From sequence record PQ589898.1: DNA of 42,729 nt; one strand, 5' to 3'. Numbering within the stretch: position 1 is the first letter of the stretch; each line of letters starts with the position of its first letter. Shown here piece by piece: positions 12,482 through 40,333 of the stretch. Origin of the DNA: Escherichia phage Alux-21. The notes beneath the pieces are model-generated. The model was not told where the DNA came from. It made no database searches and was given only the letters and a program-made list of their open reading frames with translations. A program made the position numbers and the translations under genes.

Positions 12482-12916
12482 ATGGAATTACCGCGCACTG
12501 TGCAGGAAATAGCTGACGTTATTGGCCGTGAACGTGCGCTTTTTCTTATCGGACAACTGCCAAAACTGTGGGTGCCATCGCAGCAGTACCACAAAGTTAT
12601 TTTGTATGTGCCAAAGCGGATTCGACCCAATGACCCACTGGTGCAAATCCTGGGGTGGCACGATGCCAGCAAGATGGTGCAGCACTTCGGGGGTGAAATG
12701 CTTCACCCGGCTAACTGTGAATACATTTACCGCCGTTTTGTTCATCAGAGCATTAAGCGGATGCACAGCGAAGGAATGGACGCCAAAGCCATTGCGGAAC
12801 TGCTGGAAGTGTCAGAACGCACCGTTAAGCGCCATTGCACTGACAAACCCCACAAAGACACATCACCTGCAAATGATAACACTCCGCAACGACTACTAAC
12901 GGCTATGGGGCAATGA
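12482..12916 (+). CDS. Mor/C-family transcriptional activator-like protein (putative late-gene activator)
   Basis: 144 aa; central ...ILYVPKR... and C-terminal HTH-like MDAKAIAELLEVSERTVKRH resemble Mu Mor/C proteins; located directly upstream of the lysis cassette; TATAAT hexamer at 12463-12468. Confidence 0.45.
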   Translation: MELPRTVQEIADVIGRERALFLIGQLPKLWVPSQQYHKVILYVPKRIRPNDPLVQILGWHDASKMVQHFGGEMLHPANCEYIYRRFVHQSIKRMHSEGMDAKAIAELLEVSERTVKRHCTDKPHKDTSPANDNTPQRLLTAMGQ

Positions 12917-12920
12917 CCAA

Positions 12921-13241
12921 ATGGAGTTTTTCCAGAAATTTCTAGATAACATTGGGTGGGGCATCGCTGGCATAATGGGTGCGCTGGTTTCGCTCCCGTT
13001 CCACGATGACATCAAATCTGTAAAGGCGCGCATCTGGTTTGTTTGCACCGGCGCGCTGTGTGCCTACTTCCTGACTGACCTGGTTTCTTTGTACTTCAAA
13101 ATCGACCGTGGGTTAGCTGGTAGCGTTGGTTTTCTAATGGGGGCGTTCGGTGGTTCGCTGCTTGCTGCCGTCATCCGGGCAATCAAAGCAGCAGACCTTT
13201 GGCAACTCCTGAAAAACCGCTTCGGTGGGGGTAACGCATGA
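12921..13241 (+). CDS. holin
   Basis: 106 aa with 2-3 predicted TM helices and charged C-terminus, first gene of lysis cassette. Confidence 0.65.
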   Translation: MEFFQKFLDNIGWGIAGIMGALVSLPFHDDIKSVKARIWFVCTGALCAYFLTDLVSLYFKIDRGLAGSVGFLMGAFGGSLLAAVIRAIKAADLWQLLKNRFGGGNA

Positions 13242-13519
13242 TGCTGTTTACGGTCATCAATTTCATTTCAGTAGTCATTCTATTCCTTTGGGCAACCTGG
13301 TGCGTTTTGTACCAGGGCGTGCGTGATGGCATCGTGGGGAAAATATTATTTTCCTGCGTTGCCATTTCTGCCCTGGCAATCATCCTGCATGACATCCAGG
13401 GCACCTACACCGCTAAACCAGCAGTCACACTTCATGCCTGCATGGCAGCGGTGGCCGTCAGACATTTCATCGTCAACACGGTCTGGAAGCCATTTTTTTC
13501 AAAGCTGTTTCATAAGTGA
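13238..13519 (+). CDS. membrane protein of lysis cassette (second holin/antiholin-like, LysA-like position)
   Basis: 93 aa, three hydrophobic segments; start overlaps holin stop (ATGA). Confidence 0.45.
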   Translation: MMLFTVINFISVVILFLWATWCVLYQGVRDGIVGKILFSCVAISALAIILHDIQGTYTAKPAVTLHACMAAVAVRHFIVNTVWKPFFSKLFHK

Positions 13520-13527
13520 GGATTGAT

Positions 13528-14007
13528 ATGAAAATTTCATCCAACGGGATTGCCGTTCTCAAATATTTTGAGGATTGCCACCTTAAGGCTTATCCAGATC
13601 CTGCCACTGGCGGTGCACCGTGGACGATTGGATGGGGCCACACAGGGCCAGAAGTTAAACGCGGCCTGGTGTGGACACAAAAGCAAGCCGATGATGCCCT
13701 GGTGGCCGACCTGGCACGATTTGAACGCGCAGTGACTGCCGCCGTTCGTGTTCCGCTGAACCAGGGCCAGTTTGATGCGCTGGTATCGTTCACCTACAAC
13801 CTGGGTGAAGGCAATCTGAAATCCAGCACGCTGCTGAAAATGGTCAATGCTGGCAATTTTGCCGGTGCTGCTGAACAGTTCAAACGCTGGAACAAGGCGA
13901 ACGGCAAGACGATGCGCGGCCTTACTCGACGCCGTGCCGCTGAACAATGCTTGTTCCTGGGCATGGGTGGCGCATCAGCTATTGAACGCGGCGTGGCGGC
14001 AGCATGA
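13528..14007 (+). CDS. endolysin, GH24 lysozyme (T4/lambda R-like)
   Basis: GIAVLKYFEDCHLKAYPDPATGGAPWTIGWGHTG catalytic region and ...FDALVSFTYNLGEGNL...; SD GAGGA 6 nt before ATG 13528 (track ORF begins at GTG 13516). Confidence 0.85.
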   Translation: MKISSNGIAVLKYFEDCHLKAYPDPATGGAPWTIGWGHTGPEVKRGLVWTQKQADDALVADLARFERAVTAAVRVPLNQGQFDALVSFTYNLGEGNLKSSTLLKMVNAGNFAGAAEQFKRWNKANGKTMRGLTRRRAAEQCLFLGMGGASAIERGVAAA

Positions 14008-38371: not shown

Positions 38372-38466
38372 ACAACAAACATTGTTGCAATCATTCTACA
38401 TCATCGTATATCATTACCTTAACCGGGCGGAATACCTGCCCGGACTAATAACGAGGTAATGCCCAC

Positions 38467-39111
38467 ATGAACACATCAAATAAAACCCTGCTGCAAATAC
38501 TGGTTGAAGAACTGCCGAAACGTGGCGGCTGGCCGAAAGGTGCTGTAAAAATCCATCAAGACCATGACGGTGAAACCTGGGCGTGGTTAAATCATGATGG
38601 CACAGAACGGCTATTCACGCTGTACCAGGTGGCAAAAAACGCAAGGCAATTTTCCGAAGATGAAACCGAAGAAAACATGGTCACCCGCGACCAGTACGAA
38701 GCAGCACTGGCAGCAAGCAAAGCCGTTGTTGGTCGTAATGGCTGGATTGATTGGCATGGCGGTGAATGTCCGGTCGATAGTGACACAATTGTTGAAGTCA
38801 AATACCGGAACCCTAGCCCGTTTCAGTTTAATAATGACAGGGCTGGCGATTTTACATGGTCACAGGATGGCAACGCCGGTGACATCATCGCTTACCGAAT
38901 TGTGCATGGCTATACGGTCAAATCCAACGACGCACAGTTAGAAGCCGACCTGAATGACTGCATTGGCCAGGCGCAAAGCAATGACGATGCGCGTGATGAA
39001 ATTCTTTACGAACTGGCTAACTTTGCGGCCACTACAAAAACCAGTCTTGACATTGGTGTTGCCACAGAAATTGCAATTTGGCTTTCTGGCAAAGGTTATC
39101 GTAAACAATGA
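38467..39111 (+). CDS. hypothetical cargo protein (no recognisable domain)
   Basis: 214-aa ORF with SD GAGG, lower GC than tail genes, own upstream AT-rich region and downstream hairpin GCCCAT-N9-ATGGGC plus T-rich tract. Confidence 0.5.
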   Translation: MNTSNKTLLQILVEELPKRGGWPKGAVKIHQDHDGETWAWLNHDGTERLFTLYQVAKNARQFSEDETEENMVTRDQYEAALAASKAVVGRNGWIDWHGGECPVDSDTIVEVKYRNPSPFQFNNDRAGDFTWSQDGNAGDIIAYRIVHGYTVKSNDAQLEADLNDCIGQAQSNDDARDEILYELANFAATTKTSLDIGVATEIAIWLSGKGYRKQ

Positions 39112-39191
39112 TTGTCATAAAACGCGATCTGCCCATCATTATTGTATGGGCTTCATTTCTAATCATTTCATTTGTATTGGGGTTTATGTAA

Positions 39192-40067
39192 ATGGCTACT
39201 ATTGGACAACTCTACAAAGCAGGTGCCACCGAAGCAAAACCGCGTAAGGTGTTTTTCGTCCCGCTTGCTGAACTGTATGTGGAAGATGGCTACAACATCC
39301 GCGACGTGGACCAGGCGCACGTTGAAGAATTCCGCGATGCGTACCTGGCCGGTGAATATGTGCCGCCACTGACCGTGGAAGTGACGCAGCAGGGCATCAA
39401 GGTGATTGACGGCCACCACCGATTTGCCGGTGCCAAGATGGCCGCAGAAACCGGCCTGGAACTGCGCCTGGAAGTGAACGACATCACCGGCACCAGTGAG
39501 GCTGACAAAATCGCGCTGATGGTCACCAGCAGCCAGGGCAAGCCGCTGGAACCGCTGGAACGTGCCAAAGCCTATGCGCGCCTGAAAGCGCAGGGCTGGA
39601 CCAATGACGAGATAGCCAAGAAGGTGAAGCGCAGCCCGTCAGACGTGGCCAACATGCTGGCCCTGGCTGAATGCCCGGAACCCATCAAAGACATGGTGCG
39701 CGGCGGCCAGATGTCCTACGTGACCGCCACCGAACTGACCCGCCAGCACGGCACCGAAGCCGAAGCCGTGGCCGCACAGGCGCTGGAAGAAGCCAAAGCC
39801 GCTGGCAAGGATAAAGTAACAAAGAAATTCACCGAACCGAAGGCACCGAAAGCGCCGAAGGCCAAGCCGGAAGCCATCCAGCCACCGTTTGGCAAAGACA
39901 AGCTGACGCGCCTGGCTGACCTGGCTGTGCAAATCGAACTGGTTCACAGCGATGAACGCCTGGAAGATGCAGAACCTGACGAATCCATGACACTGCGCGC
40001 ACCTGCTGGCGTGGTTCGTGAATTCATGGCGCTGGTGGCTGACTACGTGGGCGGGGTGCCGGAATGA
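39192..40067 (+). CDS. ParB-like nuclease domain protein
   Basis: 291 aa; N-terminal ...YNIRDVDQAHVEEF...PPLTVEV...IKVIDGHHRFAGAKMA resembles ParB/Srx N-terminal domain; proline/lysine-rich linker (KAPKAPKAKPEAIQPP) and unknown C-terminal domain. Confidence 0.55.
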   Translation: MATIGQLYKAGATEAKPRKVFFVPLAELYVEDGYNIRDVDQAHVEEFRDAYLAGEYVPPLTVEVTQQGIKVIDGHHRFAGAKMAAETGLELRLEVNDITGTSEADKIALMVTSSQGKPLEPLERAKAYARLKAQGWTNDEIAKKVKRSPSDVANMLALAECPEPIKDMVRGGQMSYVTATELTRQHGTEAEAVAAQALEEAKAAGKDKVTKKFTEPKAPKAPKAKPEAIQPPFGKDKLTRLADLAVQIELVHSDERLEDAEPDESMTLRAPAGVVREFMALVADYVGGVPE

Positions 40068-40333
40068 AAGGCGAACTTAAAGCCGGTGGCCTGGCACTGA
40101 TCTATGGGTTGAAAGTACACCCTCAGCACAATGGGAAATGTGTAACCCTGTATCGAGTAGCGCAACCTAGATACAAGGATGAAGATGGCCAAATATGGTG
40201 GCGCGTTTACGGCCTGAAACCTGGCAACGAACTTTGTCAGATTAAAGCTGAAAACCTGCTGCCAATCGACGGCGACGATCACCAGGAACGTGACCAACTG
40301 GCCAAAGACAAACCCGCCGAACTGACGGCGTAA
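40064..40333 (+). CDS. hypothetical protein
   Basis: 89-aa ORF whose ATG overlaps ParB-like stop (ATGA), suggesting co-translation. Confidence 0.45.
   Translation: MKGELKAGGLALIYGLKVHPQHNGKCVTLYRVAQPRYKDEDGQIWWRVYGLKPGNELCQIKAENLLPIDGDDHQERDQLAKDKPAELTA

Follow-up and report, generated by a model that had tools for sequence, protein, structure and literature searches.

The late promoters of phages P2 and 186 (PP, PO, PV and PF) have poor -35 regions and depend on the activators Ogr, B or Delta; of these, Ogr is a zinc-finger protein whose target is a TGT-N12-ACA dyad near -55. At T4 middle promoters, a 9 bp MotA box centred at -30 replaces the -35 hexamer, and the co-activator AsiA remodels sigma region 4. 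Mycobacteriophage genomes contain dozens of stoperators or start-associated sequences, which are repressor sites or translation-linked elements. The Mor fold (PDB 1RR7) consists of an N-terminal dimerisation domain, a beta-strand linker and a C-terminal helix-turn-helix. The late promoters of phage Mu are transcribed by the host sigma-70 holoenzyme and have a -10 but no -35 hexamer, with an activator site overlapping the -35 region; the Mor/C site is a 16-bp imperfect dyad-symmetric element centred at -43.5 (PMC2582627, PMC4390567).

Escherichia phage Alux-21 is a Jilinvirus (Iiscvirinae) myophage, belonging to a group described in a recent survey as poorly characterised and 'enigmatic' in lifestyle (PMC11990801). 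The literature searched contains no description of the late control presented here for the Jilinvirus-type group, and no transcript-end, binding or activation data for any of its phages. Throughout, the window is the entire stretch of DNA that was analysed (PQ589898.1, 42,729 nt). Sequence comparisons indicate that a repeat in this window is very probably the activator box of five late promoters (Table 1), and that it is where the phage's own late activator most likely docks.

In layout, the five predicted promoters resemble Plys, PI and PP of Mu or PV and PF of P2. As in Mu, they combine a -10 hexamer, the lack of a -35 hexamer and a putative activator site at the -35 position, and would be used by the host sigma-70 polymerase; both phages encode a small activator with a C-terminal helix-turn-helix, whose gene is directly 5′ of the lysis genes (in Mu, C and then lys), and in both the promoters serve lysis, head-protease and baseplate/tail units. 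In contrast, the Mu sites are dyad-symmetric whereas the Alux-21 box is asymmetric, and the sequence link between Mor and the Alux-21 activator is weak. Alux-21 has P2-like tail genes (gpV, W, J, I, FI, FII, T, U, X, D), its predicted promoters before the baseplate and sheath genes correspond in position to PV and PF, and the two phages share poor -35 regions and, as predicted for Alux-21, activator dependence; however, the box is unrelated to the Ogr element, and no Ogr_Delta domain was found in the small ORFs of the window. T4 middle promoters have the same bipartite arrangement, with an asymmetric phage-specific box at the -35 place and a sigma-70 -10 hexamer at a fixed distance, but a MotA or AsiA homologue is not evident in Alux-21. 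The mycobacteriophage elements are likewise short, near-identical, strand-biased repeats scattered near gene starts, although they lack the fixed-distance -10 hexamer of the Alux-21 boxes. Overall, the late control predicted for Alux-21 is an ordinary kind of phage gene control.

Table 1. Features of the Alux-21 late region, with window coordinates
Feature	Position	Strand	Details	Predicted transcription unit
Late transcriptional activator gene	12482..12916	+	144 aa; proposed box reader; PHROG 836, E=1.3e-30	
Predicted late promoter 1 (lysis operon)	12841..12883	+	degenerate box TGACAAACCCCACAAAGAC 12841-12859; 18-nt spacer; -10 AACACT 12878-12883	unit 1: lysis genes and terminase
Predicted late promoter 2	17110..17152	+	box TGACAAACCCCAAGAAGAA 17110-17128; 18-nt spacer; -10 GAGACT 17147-17152	unit 2: head-tail joining, portal, protease
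Predicted late promoter 3	19849..19891	+	box 19849-19867; -10 GATACT 19886-19891	unit 3: nested scaffold-capsid gene, head completion, gpV
Predicted nested scaffold-capsid start	19929..19945	+	Shine-Dalgarno GAGGA; in-frame ATG 19943	
Predicted late promoter 4 (baseplate/tail-fibre operon)	24151..24204	+	box TGACAAACCCCAAGAAGAT 24151-24169; 19-nt spacer; -10 CATCAT 24189-24194	unit 4: gpW, baseplate, tail fibres; leaderless mRNA
Intrinsic terminator	31170..31185	+	GCCCGCTGCGGCGGGC then TTTTTT; strong; ends the tail-fibre operon directly 5′ of promoter 5	
Predicted late promoter 5	31194..31236	+	box GGACAAACCCCAAGAAGAA 31194-31212; 18-nt spacer; -10 GACCAT 31231-31236	unit 5: sheath, tube, tape measure, rest of tail
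9-mer	34275..34283	+	chance match, not a family member; lacks box 3′ half; hexamer after N18 AGAAAC	
9-mer	40307..40315	+	chance match, not a family member; lacks box 3′ half; hexamer after N18 GTGACT	

A strand-specific repeat in the late region

Three exact copies of GACAAACCCCAAGAAGAA, at 17111-17128, 19850-19867 and 31195-31212, are joined by two imperfect ones, at 24152-24169 (17/18) and 12842-12859 (15/18), and every copy is on the + strand; the three exact copies and the 17/18 copy are at the positions given by the initial annotation. With up to three mismatches, the window contains five copies, all on the + strand, compared with a mean of 0.03 in 100 shuffles, none of which reached five. 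The full repeat is 19 nt long, with one more leading base, which is T at four sites and G at the remaining one. Its 9-nt core, GACAAACCC, is present seven times, always on the + strand as first described (shuffle mean 0.53, maximum 2), and the reported distances of 26-114 nt from the copies to the next start codon are correct. The seven-member family proposed on this basis holds for five copies, but not for those at 34275 and 40307, which lack the 3′ half of the box and the -10 hexamer. In particular, there is no nAnAnT hexamer 18 nt 3′ of either 9-mer, and no box was found at the equivalent places in relatives with a different box; moreover, the 34275 9-mer sits in the 3′ end of an endonuclease VII-like gene that is missing from several relatives. 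Two extra 9-mers, where 0.53 are expected, are within chance.

The copies at 17111 (terL) and 19850 (protease-capsid fusion gene) are in frame and both encode DKPQEE, and those at 24152 and 31195 are intergenic, in agreement with the frames originally assigned; the copy at 12842 is in frame within the activator gene and encodes DKPHKD. All three coding boxes share one reading frame (chance 1 in 9), which the promoter model does not require. They fall outside Pfam domains, and the activator copy is located in a tail with a pLDDT below 50. The initial annotation had argued that coding constraint cannot explain the repeat's identity. This argument stands, and the reverse holds, with the predicted promoter dictating the peptide: coding and intergenic copies would be identical because the boxes impose DKPQEE in disordered tails and linkers.

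Conservation and concerted change among relatives

Eleven phages from nine or more genera were compared, namely phages of Escherichia, Enterobacter, Klebsiella, Serratia, Pseudomonas (two), Achromobacter, Burkholderia, Ralstonia, Xanthomonas and Acinetobacter. A phage-specific box of 18-19 nt recurs in each of them at five shared locations: within the 3′ ends of the activator gene and of terL, where protease meets scaffold in the capsid gene, between gpV and gpW, and just past a terminator ahead of the sheath gene. Alexa departs from this pattern with three boxes, and Arya with a degenerate activator copy. The positional conservation in related phages that had been proposed as a check, together with k-mer counts against shuffled controls, is therefore observed, and no copy with up to four mismatches is present on the opposite strand in the 11 phages. 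Extra matches on the late strand number only four, scattered through KA2-1 and MQ-4, with 3-4 mismatches and no -10 hexamer.

The box itself differs between phages: it is GACAAACCCCAAGAAGAA in Alux-21, GACACCCCGCACGAAGAA in Arya, GACAAGCCGCACGAAGAA in KA2-1, GGCAAACCCACAAGAGGAA in PPpW-3, GGAAATCCCACAAGAGGAA in Persinger and GGAAATTCCGGACATGGAA in FoX1. Within a phage, the variant is uniform across its sites, coding and non-coding alike, which is the pattern of concerted evolution, and the encoded peptide shifts along with the box (DKPQEE, DTPHEE, DKPHEE). Further, a de novo search of IMG/VR contigs encoding an activator homologue, using the rule of a repeated box, N18 and nAnAMT, located boxes at the expected places in ~35 contigs. 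As a separate observation, Serratia phage MQ-4 carries an annotated ogr/delta-like gene.

Predicted promoter architecture

Each promoter is predicted to consist of the 19-nt box, (T/G)GACAAACCCCAAGAAGAA, followed by 18 nt (19 nt at gpW) and a weak sigma-70-type -10 hexamer of the pattern nAnA(A/C)T, which matches TATAAT at 3-4 of six positions. Of 51 boxes from the 11 phages, 48 are followed after exactly 18 nt by a hexamer with A in its second (-11) and T in its sixth (-7) position, the key bases of a -10 element; for all other offsets between 0 and 59, this pattern is found at 16% or less. The family consensus is YGGAAAWCCCRCAAGAGGAA-N18-nAnAMT. The box spans about -49 to -31 and has GAAGAA at the place expected for TTGACA; none of the five promoters has a -35 hexamer, as the box occupies or abuts that region. 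Consensus sigma-70 promoters are not enriched in the late region (9 found versus 14.2 expected). Dyad symmetry, sought across 35 distinct boxes, is absent; the complementary fraction around -43.5 is 0.26, compared with 0.19 when shuffled, and the best value is 0.43, at -45 and -37.5. Together, the fixed-distance -10 hexamer, the box in place of the -35 hexamer and the activator-helix covariation described below argue for five activator-dependent sigma-70 late promoters.

Promoter 1 is within the 3′ end of the activator gene, and a box is present at this position in all 10 other phages but Alexa. Promoter 2 is within the C-terminal tail of terL, past its nuclease domain, and is followed by a head-tail joining gene that starts at 17225 and then by the portal gene. 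Promoter 3 is internal to the protease-scaffold-capsid fusion gene (19298-21343), between its Peptidase_S78 (aa 84-176) and Phage_capsid (aa 410-678) domains. The in-frame ATG at 19943 is ~45 nt past the predicted start of promoter 3, and the nested protein would have the N-terminus MNEKILRDASGNLVR...; a conserved N-terminus and an in-frame ATG follow the internal capsid promoter in 10/10 phages, with a Shine-Dalgarno match in 8/10 and none detected in MQ-4 and FoX1. At promoter 4, the gpW ATG (24202) is 7 nt past the hexamer and has no Shine-Dalgarno sequence, and a leaderless mRNA is therefore predicted; the hexamer-to-ATG gap of 6-7 nt is kept in 10/10 phages and equals a normal -10-to-start-site distance. 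An inverted repeat at 24181-24204 has the promoter 4 hexamer in its loop and the gpW ATG in its 3′ arm. In most relatives, as in Alux-21, a T-run directly precedes the sheath box; the Alux-21 sheath ATG is at 31284, downstream of promoter 5.

The candidate activator and its covariation with the box

The gene annotated through PHROG 836 as 'late transcriptional activator' adjoins the lysis/late region and the first predicted late promoter, with the holin ATG following at 12921. In the protein, a C-terminal helix-turn-helix (aa ~89-120) is followed by a disordered tail (aa 121-144) encoded by promoter 1 DNA; the AF2 model of the protein has a pLDDT of 82, with the tail below 50, and the modelled fold appears to match solved structures only through a generic helix-turn-helix. 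The description of the activator as 'Mor-like' is valid as a remote similarity, as hhalign against Mu Mor aligns the FGGE..P linker and the helix-turn-helix (E=0.006, probability 6%), but it does not extend to the Pfam Mor model: there is no match to PF08765 at E<=0.01, and only sub-threshold helix-turn-helix families are detected. PF08765 is carried by two homologues among the 120 listed of 166 found, and HHpred similarity to 1RR7 is noted in the annotation of phage Mano. The helix-turn-helix also scores below threshold against sigma region 4 (Sigma70_r4_2; 22.6 bits versus a cut-off of 25.7), and region 2 is absent.

According to the proposed mechanism, the host sigma-70 RNA polymerase alone would be unable to use the five promoters; the 144-aa activator would bind the box through its C-terminal helix-turn-helix and, once bound, would recruit or activate the polymerase. 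Variation in the 5′ half of the box tracks that in the activator's recognition helix after controlling for divergence of the activator's N-terminal domain (partial Mantel r 0.43-0.46, p = 2e-4, for sets of 46 and 32 phages), although this covariation is confounded by shared ancestry across related phages, and the N-terminal domain shows a correlation of its own with the box (partial r 0.39). The other universally conserved helix-turn-helix protein (7368-7601) does not covary with the box (r = -0.01, p = 0.54). The initial annotation's suggestion of an activator recognition element is thus favoured by the fixed N18 spacing to the -10 hexamer, concerted evolution and recognition-helix covariation.

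A bolder and rather unlikely extension is that the activator forms a separate family, distinct from the symmetric dimers or tetramers of the Mor/C type, that reads a long asymmetric box adjoining the spacer and effectively takes the place of sigma-70 region 4 in reading the -35 region, using a clade-private, rapidly re-targetable promoter code embedded in the coding sequence of terL, capsid and the activator tail. If so, the conserved E-x-P-Q-E-E at the activator's C-terminus would be the translation of its own binding site.

Alternative readers and roles

The boxes could instead be late promoters read by another phage DNA-binding protein, a host factor or a modified polymerase. The central box positions differ among phages with the same recognition helix, the activator's resemblance to solved structures is generic, and these phages also encode other small helix-turn-helix and DksA-like proteins, all of which would suit such a reader. 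However, it is the activator helix and not the 7368-7601 protein that covaries with the box, and the latter protein is identical in Alux-21 and KA2-1 despite their different boxes; the boxes occur together with the activator gene in every genome and in the ~35 metagenomic contigs, and the searches of the window yielded no gene for a sigma factor, an RNA polymerase or Ogr/Delta. Another reader is therefore improbable, and the phage's own activator remains the preferred one. Promoters for a phage-encoded RNA polymerase or sigma factor were considered separately and rejected, with no such gene annotated in 15 related genomes and none identified by Pfam/PHROG scans of the tested window ORFs.

Roles other than promoter recognition fare worse. 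An RNA element, whether an RNase processing site, a translational enhancer or a ribosome standby site, would be consistent with a strand-specific repeat upstream of gene starts that read-through transcripts would contain, but it leaves the fixed 18-nt distance to the nAnAnT hexamer unexplained. Moreover, the box-to-start-codon distance ranges from 50 to 114 nt, the gpW start codon is only 7 nt past the hexamer, the sheath box is immediately 3′ of a terminator, no Rfam family matches and the box covaries with a DNA-binding helix. The 5′-UTR or processing role first suggested is very improbable, because the box is upstream of the predicted transcription start.

Even less probable is a short homology linker that promotes module exchange between phages, another role put forward initially. 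In 5/8 relatives, a homology block does start at 31154-31158, at the terminator just 5′ of the 31195 box and at the right end of the variable tail-fibre cassette; however, homology blocks with 8/8 relatives pass uninterrupted through the 17111, 19850 and 24152 boxes, three of the four copies that match at >=17/18. Box sequences are phage-specific and so would supply no homology shared across lineages, and a linker needs neither strand bias nor a -10 hexamer. Finally, a functional DKPQEE peptide (a protease cleavage or docking site) or a homing-endonuclease target is scarcely credible: the single frame of the coding copies and the copy at the protease/scaffold junction would fit a peptide, but two of the four copies matching at >=17/18 are intergenic, the peptide varies between phages in step with the non-coding copies and the boxes encode segments with predicted disorder, in tails or linkers; the endonuclease proposal is unlikely because relatives without the 33694-34311 endonuclease gene have the boxes.

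Implications for Jilinvirus-type phages

The five predicted promoters, the family consensus and the candidate activator provide a late-transcription map for Jilinvirus/Iiscvirinae-type myophages and more than 100 related viral contigs. The map predicts that the 'fused' protease-capsid gene also gives a separately transcribed scaffold-capsid protein, that gpW is produced from a leaderless mRNA, and that changes to a few recognition-helix residues of the activator would re-target all five promoters. Natural matched activator/box pairs could therefore provide orthogonal, phage-derived expression switches. For annotation, the conserved 'peptides' in the terL, capsid and activator tails would be explained as promoter DNA, and in the phage-therapy candidates of the group (ep3, ECO1230-10 and the FoX phages), the comparison identifies a putative late switch.

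Candidate late promoters in the window

The explanation that best fits the 18-mer repeat GACAAACCCCAAGAAGAA is an activator box shared by five late promoters, in which an activator-binding site would stand where a -35 hexamer is normally found and a host sigma-70 -10 hexamer would lie downstream. The repeat itself is real and functional-looking, as the initial annotation had proposed: the window has five copies, all on the + strand, compared with a mean of 0.03 matches in shuffled controls (see the table of features). It extends one base further on its upstream side, with a T at four sites and a G at the fifth. 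The seven-copy family proposed for its 9-nt core holds only in part. There are seven occurrences, all on the + strand, versus 0.53 expected, but the 9-mers at 34275 and 40307 have neither a -10 hexamer nor the box's 3′ half; they were rejected as additional promoters and attributed to chance.

Features of the window discussed in the text
Feature	Position (strand)	Details
Box, promoter 1	12842 (+)	15/18; in frame in the activator gene
Box, promoter 2	17111 (+)	exact; in frame in terL
Box, promoter 3	19850 (+)	exact; in frame in the protease-capsid fusion gene
Box, promoter 4	24152 (+)	17/18; intergenic, before gpW
Box, promoter 5	31195 (+)	exact; intergenic, before the sheath gene
Activator gene	12482-12916 (+)	immediately 5′ of the holin gene
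Activator tail	12842-12916	disordered C-terminus
Control HTH protein	7368-7601	universally conserved
Terminator	12074-12091	before the 390 bp non-coding gap
Gap repeats	12101-12422	GTCACC/GGTGAC
Sigma-70-like promoter	12415-12443	TGGTCA-17-TACAAT
Internal capsid ATG	19943
gpW inverted repeat	24181-24204	(c)GTGCGGGC-atcatt-GCCCGCATG
Homology block start	31154-31158	right end of the variable tail-fibre cassette
Terminator	31170-31185	strong; directly before the sheath box
Sheath-leader palindrome	31255-31264	TGTGTGCACA
Endonuclease gene	33694-34311
tRNA-like sequence	40785-40858 (-)
Tyrosine integrase gene	41163-42374 (+)
tRNA-like sequence	42487-42560 (+)
Palindrome ACAAT(G/C)ATTGT	1455, 4848, 22294, 33259, 37003, 39105
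Palindrome CAACAATTGTT	8673, 15260

The promoter architecture emerges from 51 boxes of 11 phages, aligned on their 3′ ends and scanned at downstream offsets from 0 to 59. In particular, the hexamer starting exactly 18 nt after the box combines A at its second position with T at its sixth in 48 of the 51 (94%), and reads nAnA[A/C]T in 80%; at all other offsets, the A2/T6 frequency is at most 16%. Sigma-70 region 2 relies most on these two positions. When the hexamer is set as -12 to -7, the box covers about -49 to -31, and its conserved 3′ end (GAAGAA, GAGGAA or ATGGAA) occupies the usual place of the -35 hexamer. The TGACA at the start of the box was rejected as a sigma-70 -35 element, being 32 nt from the -10; with 9 counted versus 14.2 expected, the late region is not enriched for consensus sigma-70 promoters. 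A promoter for a phage-encoded polymerase or sigma factor was also rejected, as no such gene turned up in Pfam and PHROG scans of the window ORFs tested or in the annotations of 15 related genomes.

Further, the gpW ATG lies 6-7 nt past its hexamer in every phage, with no Shine-Dalgarno sequence, from which a leaderless gpW mRNA is predicted. Within the capsid gene, an in-frame ATG comes after the box in all 10 phages examined and begins an N-terminus conserved as M(N)EKILRDASGNLVR; 8 of these phages have a Shine-Dalgarno match ahead of it. This conserved start predicts a nested scaffold-capsid gene. The gpW spacing, the internal capsid ATG and the terminator preceding the sheath box all fit a promoter. 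Activator binding, activation and the start sites are what we infer from these sequences.

The gpW promoter also overlaps an inverted repeat whose loop contains the -10 hexamer and whose 3′ arm contains the gpW ATG; folded as RNA, the repeat has dG -19.9 and z -6.7. The hairpin occurs in 7 of the 11 phages (the window and the relatives' genomes L001, L008, L010, L012, L013 and L014) with differing arm sequences, which look compensatory; it is missing from Arya and KA2-1, and the stems of Persinger and FoX1 are weaker and placed differently. Such a hairpin would hide the AUG in read-through transcripts and not in the predicted leaderless mRNA. In the sheath-gene leader, a palindrome has the same place 3′ of promoter 5 in Arya, KA2-1 and the close relatives.

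Conservation of the boxes across phages

By megablast, the window is a Jilinvirus (Iiscvirinae) myophage. Most of its late region is 90-93% identical to that of Salmonella phage PT1 and of the E. coli phages ep3, ECO1230-10, ECOO78 and Bas97; phages of Enterobacter, Klebsiella, Serratia, Pseudomonas and other hosts are related less closely. The close relatives all share the window's 18-mer, at the same five sites. The distant phages have their own, differing box at those places, constant in sequence across the sites within each phage. These boxes were located by a position-guided search, as a global k-mer census was drowned by background noise in the high-GC relatives.

Boxes of the distant phages
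Phage	Box	Places
Arya	GACACCCCGCACGAAGAA	five
KA2-1	GACAAGCCGCACGAAGAA	five
MQ-4	GACAAACCCAAAGAAGAA	five
PPpW-3	GGCAAACCCACAAGAGGAA	five
Persinger	GGAAATCCCACAAGAGGAA	five
Mano	GGAAAATCCGCAAGAGGAA	five
Mica	GGAAATCCCACGGGAGGAA	five
phiRSP	GGAAATCCCACCAATGGAA	five
FoX1	GGAAATTCCGGACATGGAA	five
Alexa	GAAAAAGCGCAGGATGAA	three only

The positional conservation that the initial annotation had proposed to check is thus present. Moreover, the opposite strand has no box copy at ≤4 mismatches in the 11 phages, and the only extra late-strand matches are four scattered hits with 3-4 mismatches in KA2-1 and MQ-4, without a -10 hexamer. Across 35 distinct boxes, the family-wide consensus is YGGAAAWCCCRCAAGAGGAA (-50 to -31), with invariant A-45, C-41 and G-33.

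Coding and non-coding boxes vary in step between phages, and the encoded peptide varies along with them. Because they change together, the constraint acts on DNA, and would be imposed by a phage-specific trans-acting reader. A peptide motif cannot account for the repeat, since the non-coding copies are left over, and the earlier view that coding constraint is insufficient is borne out. No Pfam domain covers the terL box, which falls in that protein's C-terminal tail, or the capsid-gene box, which falls in the linker joining protease to capsid; the activator-gene box encodes part of the activator tail with pLDDT <50.

The three coding boxes share one reading frame in every phage, encoding DKPQEE in the window and EIPQEE in GGAAATCCC-type phages. 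The other two frames likewise lack stop codons, and a shared frame would arise by chance in 1 of 9 cases, perhaps because an acidic linker is tolerated at these sites. The activator's tail keeps E-x-P-Q-E-E...A-N-D-N across an alignment of distant homologues. Its first part is the activator's own box in translation, its 'AND' is encoded by the spacer, a stretch without conservation at the remaining four promoters, and its last N starts the -10 hexamer.

The activator as putative box reader

The activator gene matches PHROG 836, 'late transcriptional activator' (E=1.3e-30). Aligned homologues of the activator served to retrieve 80 IMG/VR loci. In about 35 of these, a de novo rule (a repeated 20-mer, then N18, then nAnAMT) recovers boxes where the activator, terL and capsid copies are expected, with many new variants. 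The 5′ half of the box varies with the recognition helix of the activator (SERTVKRHCT, aa 111-120 in the window) over a set of 46 phages.

Recognition helices and the 5′ halves of their boxes
Helix	Box
xDRHVRN	GGAAA(T/A)
SERTVKRH	TGACA(A/C)
SRETVNA	GCAGAA
TEQxVRF	GAAGAA
SASQVRL	GCCTAT
SLRRVYRV	TGACAG

The partial Mantel correlation, with N-terminal domain divergence controlled, is r = 0.43 (p = 2e-4, 46 phages), a value that shared ancestry inflates, whereas the control HTH protein has no partial correlation with the box (r = -0.01, p = 0.54). The control protein is identical in the window and KA2-1, whose boxes differ at three positions. This covariation, while not proof, supports the activator as the putative reader, one of the roles first suggested for the repeat. 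Central box positions differ among phages with the same recognition helix. The control HTH protein, of 77 aa, was rejected as reader, having no covariation with the box.

An RNA element acting in the 5′ UTR, also suggested initially, does not explain the repeat: it leaves both the fixed-distance hexamer and the covariation with a DNA-binding helix unaccounted for, and the repeat matches no Rfam family, the window's only Rfam hits being two tRNAs. As for a module-boundary recombination linker, homology blocks do start at the terminator just 5′ of the sheath box in 5 of 8 relatives, at the end of the tail-fibre cassette; this reading is nevertheless contradicted, as the blocks run uninterrupted across 17111, 19850 and 24152 in 8 of 8 relatives compared, so that of the four boxes with at least 17/18 identity three are spanned. 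Relatives without the endonuclease gene still have boxes, which contradicts a homing-endonuclease target.

Comparison with Mu and P2

Systems of this general kind are well known. No description of the motif itself was found in the literature searched, nor of this promoter family with its consensus and its overlap with coding sequence, nor of the nested capsid gene and leaderless gpW mRNA that are predicted here. In Mu, the late promoters possess -10 hexamers without a -35 hexamer (PMC2582627, PMC4390567), and the layout of the activator-box promoters is the same in kind, with an activator site for the -35 and a host sigma-70 -10 hexamer. Also Mu-like are the position of the activator gene just 5′ of the lysis genes and the separate lysis, head and tail units. 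The Mu C site is a 16-bp imperfect dyad centred at -43.5, and a similar dyad in Pm is bound by Mor (PMC2582627, PMC4390567); a 2025 preprint describes tetrameric binding. In contrast, no dyad symmetry was found in the box, as examined across 35 distinct variants.

The activator's assignment to the Mor/C family is weak. Membership of Pfam Mor was rejected: there is no match to that family, hhalign gives a weak match to Mu Mor (E=0.006, the alignment covering the FGGE..P linker and the HTH) and none to Mu C, and fold searches return generic HTH matches only. PF08765 appears in 2 of 120 activator homologues among the matches listed (166 found). In the Mu Plys region, ATAATCCCGCAC resembles part of the consensus and was treated as coincidence, since it is 9 nt out of register relative to the -10.

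P2 PV and PF have positional counterparts in promoters 4 and 5, ahead of gpW and the sheath gene; no Ogr/Delta protein was found in the window. Serratia phage MQ-4 has an annotated ogr/delta-like zinc-finger gene (L010 25115-25357) besides a PHROG-836-type activator and five boxes, and no counterpart of this gene was found in the window.

Other repeats and the integrase region

The gap between the first terminator and the activator gene contains 13 GTCACC/GGTGAC copies, some facing each way and each taking the form TTGGTCACC, TTGTCACC or TAGTCACC. The sigma-70-like promoter, which would drive the activator gene, shares its -35 with one of them. Relatives have other iterons at the same position, and the region may be an early-to-late switch control region, or an origin. 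Over the entire window, GTCACC is 3.4-fold over-represented.

The tyrosine integrase gene lies between two tRNA-like sequences, one a good tRNA (70 bits) and the other weaker (41 bits), which may be an attachment-site remnant; the arrangement is consistent with the genus's unsettled temperate-or-lytic status (PMC11990801), the genus being termed poorly characterised in the same paper on the BASEL collection. The palindrome ACAAT(G/C)ATTGT is scattered over early and late regions: the window and every Jilinvirus relative have 6-7 copies each, and Arya has 4. A second palindrome, CAACAATTGTT, lies at 8673 and 15260.
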